A stretch of DNA of 64,000 nt from an uncultured Gammaproteobacteria bacterium (lineage in GTDB: Bacteria; Pseudomonadota; Gammaproteobacteria; PS1; Pseudothioglobaceae): contig CAJXHL010000001.1 in assembly GCA_913054335.1 (NCBI GenBank), forward strand, positions 22,502 to 86,501, given 5' to 3'. A model generated the notes under the pieces. It was given only the letters and a program-made list of their open reading frames with translations, did not search any database and was not told where the DNA came from. Shown here piece after piece: positions 6,765 through 62,201 of this stretch (the first letter of the stretch is position 1; each line of letters starts with the position of its first letter). A program made the translations under genes and the position numbers.

Positions 6765-7190
6765 TTGATAAAATTAAAAAACAGATATTTTATCAAACTA
6801 ACGCTTATTGCAATGCAAGAAGACTTTGAGATTATTGAAATAAAGAACGATTTGATGGTGTTAAAAGCCCAACGACAAGAAGGGTGTAATACTTGCGCCT
6901 CGAAAGCCACATGCGGCACAGGTGTGTTATCGAGTTTTTTTGCTGGTTTTTCTGTGTTTAAGAAGCCTTTACAAAAAGGCGTCAAGGAAGGAGATGTTAT
7001 CACTCTGGAAATTTCTTCAAAAGAACTCTTCTTCCGCGCCTTTCAGCTCTATCTGATGCCCTTACTGGCGCTCTTTGTAGGTGCGATTCTGTCTAGCCAA
7101 TTATTTCCGGCTAATGATGTTATTCAGACGTTGATGGGTCTCGCTGCTTTTGCACTCAGTTTGGTCTTTTTAAAGGTTTACCTAAAGTGA
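6765..7190 (+). CDS. rseC: SoxR-reducing system RseC-family protein (ATG at 6813 is an alternative start)
   Basis: C..CASKATCGTG motif followed by YLMPL and two TM segments. Confidence 0.8.
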   Translation: MIKLKNRYFIKLTLIAMQEDFEIIEIKNDLMVLKAQRQEGCNTCASKATCGTGVLSSFFAGFSVFKKPLQKGVKEGDVITLEISSKELFFRAFQLYLMPLLALFVGAILSSQLFPANDVIQTLMGLAAFALSLVFLKVYLK

Positions 7191-7538
7191 GATCTTTGTG
7201 ACAGTTATTTTAGATTTGGTAGTGGGATTTTCATTGTTTTACAAGGCATATTTTTAGAGGCTCTACTTGTTGTAAGGCGATAAAATTTAACACAGGAAAA
7301 TATAGTGCAAAGCCTGCCCTTGGGTGAAAAATTCCCTATCCCGAAGGGCTGAGGTTAACAATGTTAAAGCTAAGCCAAACAACGCCTTGGCGTTTGTTTG
7401 TGCGAAACTTATACTTTAGTGTAAAAAGTGCAGAAAAATTCTCATCAATAGCTAGTGCTATTAATTTCAAATTTTTACACATTTTTTATTCATTTTTATC
7501 ATTCAGTAAATTCAAACAATAATTGTCACAAAGGTCTC
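7189..7538 (+). mobile_element. MITE-like repeat, copy 1 (long form, 350 bp)
   Basis: TIR GAGATCTTTGTGACAGTTATT / AATAATTGTCACAAAGGTCTC; perfect AAAGT direct repeat at 7184-7188 and 7539-7543; 159-bp core identical to copy 2. Confidence 0.85.
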
Positions 7539-7624
7539 AAAGTAAACACTGTGGTCATTTATTTGGCATAAAATACGCACCTTGCTACTTGAATTTTAAT
7601 CGTTGTTAGGTTGAACTGAATTAT

Positions 7625-21440: not shown

Positions 21441-22040
21441 ATGACAGGTTTTCTTTCTGGCTTCGTATTGGGATTAAGTTTGATTTTGGCAATTGGTGCG
21501 CAAAATGCCTTTATTCTTAAACAGGGCTTAAAACAACAACACGTCTTTATCTTGTGCTTAATTTGTGCAATTTCTGATGCTGTGCTCATTATTATTGGCG
21601 TATTTGGCTTTTCTCTTGCTATCAATATTTTGCCTGAAGTGGAATCTTTTGCTCGATATGCAGGTGCTATTTTCCTTTTAGTCTACGGTGCTCGAAGTTT
21701 TTACTTTGCTTTTAATAGCAATGATGCATTGAAAGAAAGTGAGGTATCTAAAACTTCACTTGCGCCAGCTGTATTGGCATGCCTCGCGTTTACATGGTTA
21801 AACCCTCATGTGTATTTAGACACGCTTTTTCTGCTCGGCTCTGTTTCTACTCAATACCTCGATGAGCAATATCAATTTGCATTGGGAGCGACGATTGCCT
21901 CATTTGTATTTTTCTTTTCTTTGGGATACGGGGCTCGCTTATTGGCGCCTATTTTTAACAAACCCATGGCTTGGAAAGTGCTAGAATTTGTTATTGGTTG
22001 CATCATGTGGCTCATTGCAATTAGCTTGGTTATTGTTTAG
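21441..22040 (+). CDS. LysE/ArgO-family amino acid exporter
   Basis: LILAIGAQNAFILKQG, TWLNPHVYLDT. Confidence 0.92.
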   Translation: MTGFLSGFVLGLSLILAIGAQNAFILKQGLKQQHVFILCLICAISDAVLIIIGVFGFSLAINILPEVESFARYAGAIFLLVYGARSFYFAFNSNDALKESEVSKTSLAPAVLACLAFTWLNPHVYLDTLFLLGSVSTQYLDEQYQFALGATIASFVFFFSLGYGARLLAPIFNKPMAWKVLEFVIGCIMWLIAISLVIV

Positions 22041-22042
22041 TT

Positions 22043-22392
22043 GAGGCCTTTACGTAAAGCATTTTATGTTTGATAGTGGGATTTTTTTTATTTTACAAGG
22101 CATATTTTTTTGAAGTTCTACTTGTTGTATAGCGATAAAATTTAACACAGGAAAATATAGTGCAAAGCCTGCCCTTGGGTGAAAAATTCCCTATCCCGAA
22201 GGGCTGAGGTTAACAATGTTAAAGCTAAGCCAAACAACGCCTTGGCGTTTGTTTGTGCGAAACTTATACTTTAGTGTAAAAAGTGCAGAATAATTCTCAT
22301 CAATAGCTAATGCTATTAATTTCAAATTTTTACACATTTTTTATTCATTACTACCACTCAGCAAACTTTAAAATGATTTATGTAAAGGCCTC
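22043..22392 (+). mobile_element. MITE-like repeat, copy 2 (long form, 350 bp)
   Basis: TIR GAGGCCTTTACGTAAAGCATTTTA / TAAAATGATTTATGTAAAGGCCTC; flanks TAGTT / TAGTA. Confidence 0.85.
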
Positions 22393-22404
22393 TAGTAATT
22401 ATTT

Positions 22405-44900: not shown

Positions 44901-44946
44901 GAATGTCGGTTTAACAATTGTGGTGTAAGTAGTGCCGAGAATAGAA

Positions 44947-45040
44947 TCCAACACAAGAAAAAACTATTACCGTTGCTCCCTTCCGGGCCTGGCGGGGTTC
45001 ATAATTATTCATTGTCGGTTTACCCTCGACACTGGGTAAT
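44947..45040 (-). ncRNA. ffs: Signal recognition particle 4.5S RNA
   Basis: Minus strand carries the domain IV motif CCCGCCAGGCCCGGAAGGGAGCAACGG (44971-44997) inside a long stem (CCGACA.../...TGTTGG); lies directly upstream of dnaX. Ends approximate. Confidence 0.9.
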
Positions 45041-51512: not shown

Positions 51513-51839
51513 ATGAACGATAAAATTAAAGCGGTCTCAGACGCTTCTTTTGATGCTGACGTTATTAACGCATCACAACCAGTTTTAGTAGATTTTTGGG
51601 CGGAATGGTGTGGTCCTTGCAAGGCTCTTTCACCAATCCTAGATGACATTGCAATTGAATATGATGGTCGTGTGACTATCGCTAAAGTCAACGTTGACGA
51701 AAACATGCAGACGCCGCCAAAATACGGTATTAGGGGCATTCCTACTATGCTTTTATTTAAAGATGGCGCAGTCGAGGCCACTAAGGTTGGGGCATTGTCA
51801 AAAGCTGAATTGAGTGCATTTATAGACTCGAATATTTAG
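51513..51839 (+). CDS. trxA: Thioredoxin
   Basis: WAEWCGPCK; trxA-rho synteny. Confidence 0.97.
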
Positions 51840-51897
51840 AGACCTTTGCATAAAAACATTTAAATTTGATAGTGGGATTTTTTTTAATTTACAAGGC
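51839..51897 (+). mobile_element. Solo left end of the MITE-like repeat (copy 5)
   Basis: GAGACCTTTGCATAAAAACATTTAAATTTGATAGTGGGATTTTTTTTAATTTACAAGGC matches the first ~60 bp of copies 1, 2 and 4; no right end found downstream. Confidence 0.75.
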
Positions 51898-52051
51898 TTC
51901 ATTTAAACTAATTTTTTAAACAGAACAAAAACTTAAAACACCAATCGCTGTCGGCGCAACTTGCGCTGACAATAGCACATTTCCTCAATACAATCTGTAT
52001 TAAATCGACCGTTTGACAATCCGTCAACATAAATATCACTAACAATCAATT

Positions 52052-53314
52052 ATGAAATTATCCGACCTTAAAATCCAGACGCCATCTGAACTCTTGGAAA
52101 TGGCACAATCTTTAGGCATTGAAAACATCTCGAGAGCGAAAAAGCAAACGCTTATTTTTGCAATCTTGAAACACATGGCAGACAATGATGAAGAGGTTTT
52201 AGGTGATGGTGTATTAGATATTTTGCAAGAAGGTTATGGTTTTCTGAGATCTGCGAACGATTCGTATGTTTCTGGCCCCGACGATATTTATGTGTCACCG
52301 AACCAAATCAGGCGATTTAATCTGTCAACAGGTGATGTTGTTACTGGCAAGATTCGTGCACCAAAAAAAGGTGAAAAATATTTTGCTCTAGTCAAAGTTT
52401 TAGAGGTTAATGGTGATAAGCCAGAAAATGTTAGAAATAGAATTCCTTTTTCTTCACTAACGCCTCTTCATCCAAATGAAAGGTTAAAACTAGAGATTGG
52501 CAATGGTGGTACAGAAGATATTACCGCAAGAGTAATTGACTTGGTTGCACCGTTCGGTAAAGGCCAAAGGGGCTTGTTGGTTGCGCCGCCTAAGGCGGGC
52601 AAGACGATGATTATGCAAAATATTGCATCATCAATTGCCGTCAACCACCCAGACTGTGAGTTAATTGTATTGTTAATTGATGAGCGTCCGGAAGAGGTGA
52701 CTGAAATGGAGCGCACAGTCAGAGGTGAAGTGATTTCTTCTACTTTTGATGAGCCTGCAAAGCGCCATGTTCAGGTTGCTGAAATGGTCATCGAAAAAGC
52801 TAAAAGACGTGCTGAGCAAGGCAAGGATGTCATCATTCTTCTTGACTCAATCACGCGTTTAGCAAGAGCCTACAATACCGTTGCGCCTTCTTCTGGTAAG
52901 GTGTTGACTGGCGGTGTTGATGCTAATGCATTGCAAAGACCAAAACGCTTTTTTGGTGCCGCTAGAAACATTGAGAACGGTGGTAGTATTACTATCATTG
53001 CTACTGCATTGGTCGACACCGGTTCAAAAATGGACGAGGTGATTTACCAAGAATTCAAGGGTACTGGTAATATGGAATTGCATCTTGAGCGCCGTCTTTC
53101 AGAAAAACGCATTTTCCCAGCGATTAATATTAATGCCTCAGGTACACGTCGCGAAGAGCTGATTACCGATGAGCAAGAACTTCAGAAAATGTGGATTTTG
53201 CGCAAAATTCTTCACCCAATGGATACCGTTGGTGCTGCAGAATTTTTGATCGAAAGATTAAGGTTTTCTAAGACTAATAATGAGTTCTTTGACTCAATGA
53301 AGCAAAAGAAATAG
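52052..53314 (+). CDS. rho: Transcription termination factor Rho
   Basis: [45 protein letters not shown]. Confidence 0.98.
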
Positions 53315-53341
53315 CCGTTATTATCTGGTAGACTGATATGA

Positions 53342-53633
53342 GAGGCCTTTACAACAATCATTTTAAAATTTGCTGAGTGATAAAAATGAGTAAAAAATGT
53401 GTAAAAATTTATAATTAATAGCACTCGCTATTGATGAGAATTTTTCTGCACTTTTTAGCATTTTTCGCCTCAGCCCTTTGGGATAGGAGATTTTCACCCT
53501 AGGGCAGGCTTCGCACTCCAATTTTCCTGCGTTAATTTTTTTCGCTAGACAACAAGTAGAGCTTCTAAAAATATGCCTTGTAAAATAATAAAAATCCCAC
53601 TATCAAACCTAAACTGATTGTTGTAAAAGCCTC
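53342..53633 (-). mobile_element. MITE-like repeat, copy 3 (short form, 292 bp, inverted)
   Basis: TIR GAGGCCTTTACAACAATCA / TGATTGTTGTAAAAGCCTC; flanks TATGA / CATGA. Confidence 0.85.
53363..53461 (-). CDS. Putative 32-aa peptide inside the repeat (MLKSAEKFSSIASAINYKFLHIFYSFLSLSKF)
   Basis: GAGG SD 6 nt before ATG; homologous frames at 7361-7522 (53 aa), 22216-22293 (truncated) and 61331-61519. Confidence 0.35.
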   Translation of the reverse strand: MLKSAEKFSSIASAINYKFLHIFYSFLSLSKF

Positions 53634-53634
53634 C

Positions 53635-54810
53635 ATGAAAACGAATCTTTTTAGAATTATTCAATACCAAAATAGTCGCATTGCTCGGTATCTCATGCGC
53701 AATGTGAGTGTGTTGTTTTTTGCCATGATATTTATCATTGGCTTGGTTGTTTTTGGCAATCAGTTTGTCTTAATGGTGAAGGAGAGTGTTCGCCAAGGCG
53801 TACCTATTCAAGAATTAATGCCACTCATTGGCTTTAATATGATCAGAGATGTTCCTATTATCTTTTCTCTTTCTTTGTTTTTAGCTATTATTCTTGCCGT
53901 CTCTCAGCTGTATAAGAATTCCGAAGCTATTGTGCTTAATTCACTGGGCTTGGGCGATAAGCATTTTATGGTTTTTATTCAGCCGGTTGTTGTTGTTTCT
54001 GTTTTGTTTATTTTATTTTTAACAACTTTTGCAGTACCTTGGGCTAAGGAGCAGAAAAATCTAATTGTAGAAGAAACCAAAAATGCCTCTGAGTTTTCTT
54101 TTATTAAAGAAGGTGAGTTCCAAGAATTTAAGGATGGAGAAATTGTCTTTTACGCTTCCGAATCATCAACCCCTGATGATGCTCAAGAGCAAAATATGGA
54201 AGAAATCTTCATTTACGCCTCAGCCAAAGGAAGGCCTTTAATTGTCTTGGCTTCTGAGGCAACAAAATACACAGATCCCGACACTCATAGCGTTTATTTG
54301 CGCCTTAGAAATGGCACTCGTTATCATGGCATTCCAAGTAGTGAAAACAAAAGCATTCTCGAATTTGATCAATACGATTTGCAAATTATTTCAGGAGAGA
54401 TTCAAGAAACAGAAGTTATTTACACCGAAATTGAAGGTCGCTCGACGCTTGATCTCTTTAAAGAAACTGGTAGAGAAGTGTCTGCCGAAATACAGTGGCG
54501 CTTCTCACAACCACTAAGTGTTCTCATTCTGTCAGCGCTTGGCGTGCTGTTGGGCAAAGCATCTCCACGTGGTGGAAAAGGCATCGGCTTATTAATTGGT
54601 GTTGTTGTCTTTATGCTATACAATAACGGCCTATTAATGGCTAAAAGCGCTATGGAGCGTGGCGAGATAGATCCTTCTATTGGTCTTTGGTGGATTCATT
54701 TGTTAGTTATTTTTCTGACATTTCTGCTTTATCAGTTCAGGTACGGAAGACTGTCGACCTATCTTGTTAAAATACCCGCTTTATATAATAGAGAGAAAAT
54801 AAATGCCTAG
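53635..54810 (+). CDS. lptF: LPS export ABC transporter permease LptF
   Basis: LptF/G topology, [28 protein letters not shown]. Confidence 0.85.
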
Positions 54811-61093: not shown

Positions 61094-61157
61094 GCTAGCC
61101 CACTTATATTTGTTTTTCTAAAGCGAGAGTATTTTACCAGAAACTTTTCAATTAGTT

Positions 61158-61451
61158 GAGACCCTTGGGTAAATCATTTTAGATTTGATAGTGGAATTTT
61201 TGTTATTTTAAAAGGCATATTTTTTTAAAGCTCTACTTGTTGTCTAGCGAAAAAAATTTACGTAGGAAAATGGAGTGCGAAGCCTGCCCTTGGGTGAAAA
61301 ATTTCCTATCCCAAAGGGCTGAGGTGAAAAATGCTAAAAAGTGCAGAAAAATTCTCATCAATAGCTAGTGCTATTAATTTTAAATTTTTACACATTTTTT
61401 ATTCATTTTTATCACTCAGCAAATTCCAAAAATGGTTTGCACAAGGATCTC
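61158..61451 (+). mobile_element. MITE-like repeat, copy 4 (short form, 294 bp)
   Basis: TIR GAGACCCTTGGGTAAATCATTTT / AAAATGGTTTGCACAAGGATCTC; flanks TAGTT / AGGTT (3 of 5 match). Confidence 0.82.
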
Positions 61452-61454
61452 AGG

Positions 61455-62201
61455 TTAATAACTTTGACGTTGCCTTGTCGCTTCGAATAGCGCAATTCCG
61501 GTCGCCACAGATACGTTGAGGCTTTCAACATTGCCATGCATAGGGATTTTGACCAATTGGTCACAAGTTTTTTTGACTAATTTTCTAAGCCCTTTACCTT
61601 CAGTGCCCATCACCAGAACACTTGGCTCTCTGAGATTAAGTTGATACAGCAAGGATTGTGTCTCTCCATCAAGGCCAATAACCCACAGTGATAATTTTTG
61701 CAATTCTTTAATGGCTCTCACCAAGTTAGTTACTTGGAAGATTTTTAGTTGGTTTAGCGCACCGGCAGAGGTTTTGTGCACAAGTGCATTAATTGGCGCT
61801 GAACCGTCTTTATTGATAACCACACAGTCAACAGCGGCTGCATTTGCGCTTCGCAAACACGCACCGAGATTCCTTGGGTCTTGGATGGAGTCGAGCATTA
61901 GTATTAATGGAGCGTCACTCATACCACCTACAAACTTTATGAGCGCATCCTGACCCAGTAAGGTCGGTAGAACAATATCTGCAACAATGCCTTGGTGAAG
62001 TTCTCCTTTTGTTAGGCGATCCAACTTGCTTTTATCGATATAAGAGTAGTTGATTTGATGAGCATTAAGCTGTGAGATAACCCCAGATATTCGACGATCA
62101 TCCCTACCGGTTTGAATAAAGACGTTTAGTACGTACTCAGGGTTTGCATTAAGCTGTGCTTCTATACCGTGAAAGCCGTATATTTGTATCGATTTTGACA
62201 T
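61455..62201 (-). CDS. rlmB: 23S rRNA Gm2251 2'-O-methyltransferase
   Basis: HQGIVA, LDSIQDPRNLGACLRS, MG.EGKGLR, ESLNVSVA. Confidence 0.94.
   Translation of the reverse strand: MSKSIQIYGFHGIEAQLNANPEYVLNVFIQTGRDDRRISGVISQLNAHQINYSYIDKSKLDRLTKGELHQGIVADIVLPTLLGQDALIKFVGGMSDAPLILMLDSIQDPRNLGACLRSANAAAVDCVVINKDGSAPINALVHKTSAGALNQLKIFQVTNLVRAIKELQKLSLWVIGLDGETQSLLYQLNLREPSVLVMGTEGKGLRKLVKKTCDQLVKIPMHGNVESLNVSVATGIALFEATRQRQSY

Follow-up and report, generated by a model that had tools for sequence, protein, structure and literature searches.

The stretch of DNA analysed here (64 kb, referred to as a whole as the window) contains a dispersed repeat that raises an unusual question: which process keeps the two ends of each copy alike while the ends of different copies diverge? 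The initial annotation had pointed out that the left ends of copies 1 and 2 show 9 differences over 21 positions, whereas the left and right arms within copies 1 to 4 differ at only 2/21, 2/24, 2/24 and 4/23 positions, and that the pentamers at positions 10–14 read GTGAC/GTGAC, ACGTA/ACATA, ACAAC/ACAAC and GGGTA/GTGCA in the four copies. All of these counts and pentamers proved correct upon recounting. The window harbors four full copies of the repeat and one 62-nt mini copy, all of them intergenic and occupying nearly the whole spacer between the adjacent genes. The copies and the parts of copy 2, the copy named in the initial annotation, are as follows:

Copy 1: 7189–7538, plus strand, 350 nt, with a perfect 5-bp target duplication AAAGT (7184–7188 and 7539–7543).
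Copy 2: 22043–22392, plus strand, 350 nt, with module M1 and one module M2, flanked by TAGTT (22038–22042) and TAGTA (22393–22397).
Left arm of copy 2: 22043–22082, plus strand, outer 24 nt GAGGCCTTTACGTAAAGCATTTTA and inner part TTTGATAGTGGGAT, the latter conserved in all copies.
Stretch of copy 2 identical to copy 1: 22132–22290, plus strand, the core of a central tract of ~218 columns with two differences.
Optional module M1 of copy 2: 22157–22179, plus strand, ~23 nt, ATAGTGCAAAGCCTGCCCTTGGG, missing from the basic 270-nt copies.
Optional hairpin module M2 of copy 2: 22220–22276, plus strand, 57 nt, stem AAACAACGCC/GGCGTTTGTTT with a CUUG loop.
Right arm of copy 2: 22352–22392, plus strand, reverse complement GAGGCCTTTACATAAATCATTTTA...TTTGCTGAGTGG, 2 mismatches in 24 nt to the left arm.
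Mini copy: 51839–51900, plus strand, 62 nt, left arm and ~20 nt, terminating at an internal arm-like ACAAGGCTTC, with a perfect target duplication ATTTA (51834–51838 and 51901–51905).
Copy 3: 53342–53633, minus strand, 292 nt, with M1 and no M2, between rho and lptF/G, with the target duplication TATGA (53337–53341)/CATGA (53634–53638) overlapping the lptF start codon.
Copy 4: 61158–61451, plus strand, 294 nt, with M1 and no M2, flanked by TAGTT (61153–61157) and AGGTT (61452–61456).

Several of these copies supply or abut stop and start codons of their neighbors. The first two bases of copy 1 (GA) complete the TGA stop codon of the open reading frame 6765–7190, the first G of the mini copy completes the trxA stop codon TAG, and copy 3 sits 1 nt upstream of the lptF/G start codon, displacing the native upstream region. 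The window has a G+C content of ~40%. Since its Rho is 95–98% identical to Rho of 'Candidatus Thioglobus sp.' MAGs and of Ca. Pseudothioglobus singularis, the host is, as judged from this protein, a member of the Thioglobaceae, SUP05 clade. A bacterial small SRP RNA (44933–45028, minus strand; Rfam RF00169, 64 bits) is also encoded in the window and bears no relation to the repeat.

A conserved interior 20-mer, scanned once against metagenome contigs, matched 43 loci of almost exclusively marine origin, and searches with left-end and right-end profiles yielded 40 full copies at 28–29 independent loci. The basic unit revealed by this collection measures ~270 nt and is bounded by imperfect terminal inverted repeats of ~40 nt (outer consensus GAGAYCTTTGCAACAATCATTTTA), which are present in all 29–30 loci with 90.7% of cells paired over 32 pairs. 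Optional internal hairpin modules extend some copies to 290–410 nt and are inserted at three fixed places, namely M1 (~23 nt), M2 (57–60 nt) and M3 (~30 or 68 nt). M2 occurs in 0, 1 or 2 (tandem) copies across elements and strains, and its count is polymorphic between strains at one and the same locus. The M2 units in the window (22220–22276 and 7365–7421) and at three metagenome loci (L066, L034 and L064) are 57–60 nt long with a CUUG or CCCA loop and a bulged T, and two compensatory pairs separate the M2 types A and B. Only some copies have an extension of M2 (GGCAGGCTTCGCACT), to which M1 (AGTGCGAAGCCTGCC) shows ~15 bp of complementarity (compared at L034:120–150, L041:3146–3536 on the minus strand, L057:13060–13427 on the minus strand and 22157–22179 of the window). 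Since the window copies carry M1 without its complementary M2-extension partner, this arrangement suggests a larger ancestral element from which hairpins were lost stepwise. Solo arms (L040:2766–2791, L043:315–343 and L045:3235–3263) and arm-loop-arm minis of ~50–60 nt (L045:2125–2173 and L077:7631–7693) were also seen. They adjoin housekeeping genes (recA/ribD, xerD), and the arms of the L077 mini are matched in a non-consensus form (ACACAAA).

[quoted passage not shown] It is small, multicopy and devoid of a transposase gene, with four copies and a mini copy in 64 kb. The sequences flanking the copies show a peak of identity only at 5-mers (62% at k = 5 versus 26–47% at the other tested lengths), five of the duplications are perfect, and the duplicated target pentamers are AT-rich. 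The copies were thus inserted by a transposase making 5-bp staggered cuts. This assignment is illustrated by the rho-lptF spacer, which measures 320 bp in the window and in ten further loci (L090–L099) that contain the element, and 20–39 bp in relatives with 97–98% identical Rho (L079–L089 and L100–L107, the spacer-length tally covering L079–L089 and L100–L105), where neither the element nor any hairpin is present. The pentamer TATGA overlapping the lptF start codon is the target at the empty site. Copy 3 is nearly invariant in 10/10 of the loci L090–L099, all of which have Rho variant P0003, nearly identical to Rho of the window. Compared with the empty site, ~10 nt (TCGACTCGAT) beside the insertion are missing (window 53314–53640 versus L079:3760–3800). 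For the mini copy, an empty site is found in L086–L089, while L079–L082 carry the mini copy in a more decayed form.

Since true empty sites in relatives lack any hairpin, the arms belong to the element. This bears on a different origin of the matched ends, in which the arms are the halves of pre-existing, locus-specific palindromes (terminators or REP-like sequences) with a conserved element inserted into the loop, as in IS1397. Such an insertion would account for copy-specific complementary ends around a conserved core, and copies do sit immediately after stop codons. However, no palindrome of this kind is present at the empty rho-lptF and trxA-rho sites, the 5-bp duplication is external to the arms, and the arms have a family consensus in common. 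The empty sites refute this origin for copy 3 and the mini copy, and for the family as a whole we regard it as the least credible of the readings, with hardly any probability left.

A search for a partner element gave no candidate. On the window and L030–L078 (~0.43 Mb), all that an arm-profile search turned up were MITEs, solo arms and arm-loop-arm minis. L079–L107 yielded nothing further when searched with profiles of the complete left and right ends, and neither an autonomous partner nor a transposase was seen in ~0.6 Mb of Thioglobaceae DNA. No homologue of the repeat was found in plasmid and phage collections or IMG/VR, one viral match (L108) being a chance match within a coding region. 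A scan of genome contigs with a pattern lying inside the optional M1 gave chance matches only and is uninformative on the range of the family. Against Rfam 15, the window gave no match to the repeat at gathering score, the element itself reaching chance level only (E 0.48 and above), and four loci with long variants were likewise without a match. In the literature, we found no description of repeats in SUP05/Thioglobus.

We also considered whether the element is a gene for a small protein, such as a type I toxin under hok-like control, in which pairing of the 5′ and 3′ ends silences the mRNA. A 45-codon open reading frame with a hydrophobic tail (MEKIPYPKGLRLKMLKNAEKFSSIASAINFKFLHIFYSFLSLSKF; positions 112–249 of the basic-copy consensus, e.g. 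in L062:2264–2533, minus strand) is found repeatedly among the basic copies, and an M2 module, at 57 or 60 nt, leaves its frame intact. Yet it is intact in only ~8/18 basic copies and in 0/4 window copies, modules M1 and M3 break the frame, and variability by codon position (0.063/0.074/0.073) shows no third-position excess. With the frame broken in most copies and no codon periodicity, we rejected this reading, which we hold to be very unlikely. A resemblance of the arm to dif/Xer sites was likewise dropped, as judged by eye, since the consensus GCAACAA misfits and variable positions fall inside the binding arm.

In its architecture, the repeat is nearly identical to the TIMEs, the Tn3-derived MITEs. 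These, as described in PMC4133298, measure 262 bp, have terminal repeats of 38–40 bp, duplicate 5 bp (sometimes 6 bp) at AT-rich targets and are predicted to form long stem-loops as RNA; arms of about 38 bp and the AT-rich duplication of 5 bp are common to both. Unlike the repeat described here, TIMEs have arms homologous to Tn3-family ends and are usually single-copy, compared with four copies in 64 kb in the window. The arms of the SUP05 repeat begin with GAG(A/G)(C/T)C, while Tn3-family ends typically start with GGGG, and no Tn3-like inner motif was recognised in them. No Tn3-type transposase was found in the ~0.6 Mb of Thioglobaceae DNA examined.

We then turned to the interior of the element, which the initial annotation had taken to be frozen, in reversal of the pattern of a normal MITE. 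The stretches 7277–7435 of copy 1 and 22132–22290 of copy 2 are indeed identical over exactly 159 bp. This holds for this pair of copies only; family-wide, pairwise differences amount to 15.6% in the interior and ~24% in the outermost 24 nt of the arms, with inner arms that are as conserved as the interior. Copies 1 and 2 show 39 differences in 351 aligned columns, of which 21 lie within the leftmost 89 columns, 0 in the 159 that follow, 2 in a further 59 and 16 in the final 45. A run of 159 columns was not obtained in any of 200000 random placements (0/200000). The central tract of the two copies is flanked by ends that are 24–36% diverged, and the diverged part comprises the entire left 88 nt and right 45 nt, reaching beyond the arms alone. 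The 159-bp identity hence represents the core of a conversion-like tract and not a constraint on the interior, so that the proposed reversal of the MITE pattern is not supported.

Other strains carry two M2 modules at locus 1 (L066) and at locus 2 (L034), whereas the window has one identical module at both. On a 3.9-kb metagenome contig (L031, element at 2420–2768), a hybrid element joins the left genes of copy 1 to the right genes of copy 2, which reflects either a real 14.8-kb deletion by inter-copy recombination or an assembly chimera. Because the differences between copies 1 and 2 cluster at their ends, and in view of the M2 pattern and the L031 hybrid, gene conversion or recombination between copies would be the most economical reading of the identical interior. 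Conversion of this kind would homogenise the centres and spare the edges beside unique DNA, and for this reason the arms would be the most diverged part. As a separate observation, one population variant of copy 3 (L094:2763–3083) has five substitutions clustered in ~45 nt inside or just after M1, which may stem from conversion over a short tract by another copy; the remaining variants of copy 3 have 0–4 scattered changes.

The covariation of the arms was examined on 28–30 independent loci comprising those of the window and metagenome loci L036–L078. The initial annotation had recognised that its proposal would fall if, with more copies, left-right identity were no higher than between-copy identity. 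Within a copy, the arms mismatch at 4.3/24 positions, compared to 5.8/24 between copies, and 0/20000 permutations reached the observed value, although the significance of all such shuffles is inflated as the copies are related to one another. Non-consensus states common to both arms number 48 against 20 expected, and 56 cells are changed on both sides, where shuffling leads to 23.4±4.1 (0/500 reached 56). When the partners were slid by 1–3 columns, only 7–15 double changes remained, compared to 56 at the true mirror positions. The pairs with the highest mutual information in the whole element are mirror-image columns (13/257, 14/256, 11/259 and 18/252). Left-arm and right-arm distances are correlated (Mantel r 0.46, 0/5000), whereas arm and interior distances are not (r 0.19 and 0.04). 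At least eight matched non-consensus haplotypes occur (ACAAC, GTGAC, GAAAC, GCGAC, GCATA, GCAAA, GTAAC and GCAGC), and arm positions 1–3, 6–9, 15 and 19–21 are nearly invariant. The covariation of the arms is real and specific to mirror-image positions. Since shared ancestry links the two arms of a copy but does not produce identity at mirror positions, a process that makes both arms alike is needed.

Whether this process acts before or after insertion can be approached through the target duplications, which are usable as a neutral clock because both halves are identical at the time of insertion. The halves now mismatch at 38% of positions, compared to 67% for unrelated flank pentamers, and because most duplications have decayed, most insertions are, by this measure, old. 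At arm positions 10–14, the mismatch amounts to 24% within a copy and 50% between copies, the within-copy value lying below the 38% of the duplications (Fisher p 0.02). The mismatch between arms does not rise with the decay of the duplications (Spearman rho 0.10 for 24 nt and 0.007 for the variable positions), and locus L050 combines a duplication decayed at 3/5 positions with arms that are matched at 24/24, non-consensus bases included. For these reasons, arm complementarity appears to have been maintained after insertion. Taken together, the mirror columns, the at least eight matched haplotypes and the independence from duplication decay bear out the proposal of the initial annotation that selection or another process acts on end-to-end complementarity and not on the arm sequence as such.

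These data also bear on a scenario in which several master elements existed, each with a matched arm pair fitted to a cognate transposase variant, and in which gene conversion later erased the corresponding signal from the interior. Copy 3, a young and species-specific insertion, already carries the non-consensus ACAAC in both arms, so that matched variants are passed on from source copies, and one arm variant can occur at unrelated loci (ACAAC in copy 3 and L076; GCATA in L044 and L059b). However, at least ~8 haplotypes would call for an equal number of transposase specificities in genomes that are small and streamlined and in which no transposase was seen, and old copies with decayed duplications retain perfect arms. 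Moreover, linkage within a master element gives an association of the arms and not identity at mirror positions, as is apparent from the slid controls (7–15 versus 56). We thus judge such a set of master elements to be unlikely.

The two alternatives put forward by the initial annotation, a fold-back structure and a templated homogenisation of the arms, remain the two live explanations. In the second, one arm is homogenised against the other at the DNA level and without selection on a fold, either by intramolecular template switching at the imperfect inverted repeat while it is replicated (quasipalindrome correction) or by repair of mismatches in ssDNA that has formed a snap-back or panhandle. 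It predicts the same arm pattern as selection for pairing and agrees with a covariation that is specific to mirror-image positions and independent of insertion age. Several matched variants depart from the consensus at two adjacent positions (GTG, TA), as a copied tract would, and the rate of change between close strains is ~3 times higher in the outer arms than in the flanks (8/384 nt versus 37/~6300 nt; small numbers). Template-switch correction of quasipalindromes is, in addition, an established mutational process in E. coli (PMC7202029). On the other hand, left/right asymmetries persist family-wide, with 10 copies showing T in the left and C in the right arm at position 5 (a plus-strand wobble) and 3 showing the reverse, and the inner arms GATAGTGGGA and GCTGAGTGA remain different in all copies, a difference that frequent conversion should erase. 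The arms of the element lie 190–330 nt apart, a spacing that is far for hairpin-mediated template switching and that counts against this process.

The strand on which mismatches are tolerated offers a further distinction, since conversion at the DNA level predicts no preference for wobble pairs on one strand. The initial annotation had noted that several residual arm mismatches are G-U compatible; in the enlarged set this survives as a weak signal, with wobble mismatches favoring the plus strand at 38–41 versus 25–27 and transversion mismatches amounting to 34–42. In an interior hairpin (A3, columns 78–80 with 94–96), G-C is replaced by A-T in six copies, and of its wobble cells, 15 are on the plus and 3 on the minus strand. 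For all helices taken together, wobble cells number 62 versus 34 in favor of the plus strand, although such cells are not independent, as those at one column may be inherited. Because of this 62 versus 34 preference, selection for a single-stranded fold is favored over homogenisation at the DNA level. The folding energy of both strands is equal (z −5.6 and −6.5) and does not discriminate between them. The whole-element consensus fold from RNAalifold comprises just the terminal stem plus three hairpins that are small and for the most part invariant, and its covariation term is −1.0 kcal/mol; we therefore do not propose a detailed structure for the interior. With respect to co-directional neighbor genes, 7 copies are oriented in the same and 10 in the opposite direction; hence, a fold formed by one strand in read-through mRNA would serve about half of the copies. 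Among 29 loci (the window and L036–L078), the element lies between divergent genes six times and between convergent genes once. Promoter and terminator scans of the element gave nothing above shuffles except for the M2 hairpin, which has a terminator-like score. Outward TTTACA/TTGTAA-N17-TATCA motifs are conserved at both ends and might be weak outward promoters; as these −35/−10-like motifs lack the −10 T6, we make no claim on them.

Weighing these observations, we consider it about an even chance that the covariation of the arms is mainly caused by selection for intrastrand pairing, in RNA or ssDNA, with exchange between copies having shaped the interior. Homogenisation of the arms at the DNA level without any selection on a fold appears less probable, but as a possibility it deserves to be taken seriously. 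If pairing within one strand is what selection acts upon, the history of the family may be pictured as follows. A transposase with 5-bp staggered cuts inserted the MITE copies, most of them long ago. Since then, the arms would have been kept mutually complementary while their sequence drifted at positions 4–5, 10–14 and 16–18. For this, the element would have to fold back as a single strand, forming a long terminal stem around smaller hairpins, and the folding strand could be RNA, transcribed with or towards the neighbor genes, or ssDNA. The central part would in the meantime have been swapped between copies by homologous recombination or gene conversion, with the edges beside unique DNA escaping; such central exchange sparing the edges would explain the 159 identical bp that lie between the diverged ends of copies 1 and 2.

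In bacteria, small mobile repeats whose arms undergo compensatory change have been reported before, namely bcr1 (PMC3184786) and REPINs (PMC3116915), so that the MITE family is new while compensatory arm evolution as such is already known. The bcr1 repeats of the Bacillus cereus group are likewise small, non-autonomous and interspersed with 5-bp direct repeats; they are transcribed, and base-pair compensatory changes keep their double-stranded fold (PMC3184786, a review). They differ from the SUP05 repeat in their length of ~155 bp, their Gram-positive host and their unrelated sequence, as well as in a cruciform-like fold in place of a 40-nt terminal stem, and transcription has been demonstrated for bcr1 only. 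REPINs, the doublets of REP sequences mobilised by RAYTs, similarly consist of two inverted arms; they form a hairpin in ssDNA or mRNA that is the unit of selection, and compensatory changes on either side are common (PMC3116915). Unlike the SUP05 repeat, they measure ~70–110 nt, lack a target duplication and move by a single-strand mechanism with a tyrosine (HUH) RAYT. With 270 nt or more and a 5-bp duplication, the SUP05 repeat falls outside the REPIN/REP-RAYT group. ERIC/IRU of enterobacteria and the Correia elements of Neisseria are intergenic imperfect palindromes that are co-transcribed with their neighbors, whose RNA stems affect mRNA processing and stability and of which some copies are kept at orthologous sites. 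They differ from the SUP05 repeat by their lengths of ~127 and 100–155 bp, by a TA duplication or none, and by unrelated sequences. ERIC is also mentioned in the description of the TIMEs (PMC4133298).

At a locus common to L078 and L054, the interior of the element differs by 9.5% and the arms by 6%, compared to 14–21% for the coding flanks, and either purifying selection or concerted evolution would hold the element at this site. A more far-reaching and quite tentative proposal, which we think has a small chance of being right, is that the element is a domesticated, structured single-stranded module of streamlined SUP05-clade genomes, an RNA or ssDNA fold of ~270 nt whose transposase is extinct. 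If so, the terminal helix and the inner hairpins would be under purifying selection, and the copies would act as punctuation between packed genes by providing stop codons, transcript insulation or processing, and outward promoters. In a variant of this proposal, the matching of the arms may be kept by a panhandle-type templated repair, which is undescribed for bacterial MITEs.

The finding has practical consequences for the analysis of this clade. Repeats of this kind break or mis-join its metagenome assemblies, of which L031 may be an example, and in genome annotation it matters that they provide stop codons to upstream genes and abut start codons. The element also comes with three clocks of its own, in the decay of its target duplications, in its arms and in its interior, which could serve to separate selection on a fold from homogenisation at the DNA level. 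SUP05/Thioglobaceae are abundant sulfur oxidisers of oxygen-minimum zones with small and tightly packed genomes, for which a non-coding repeat of 270–410 nt at about one copy per 15 kb, as in the window, is an unexpected ballast, and one that is kept at one locus across species with less divergence in the repeat than in the coding flanks.
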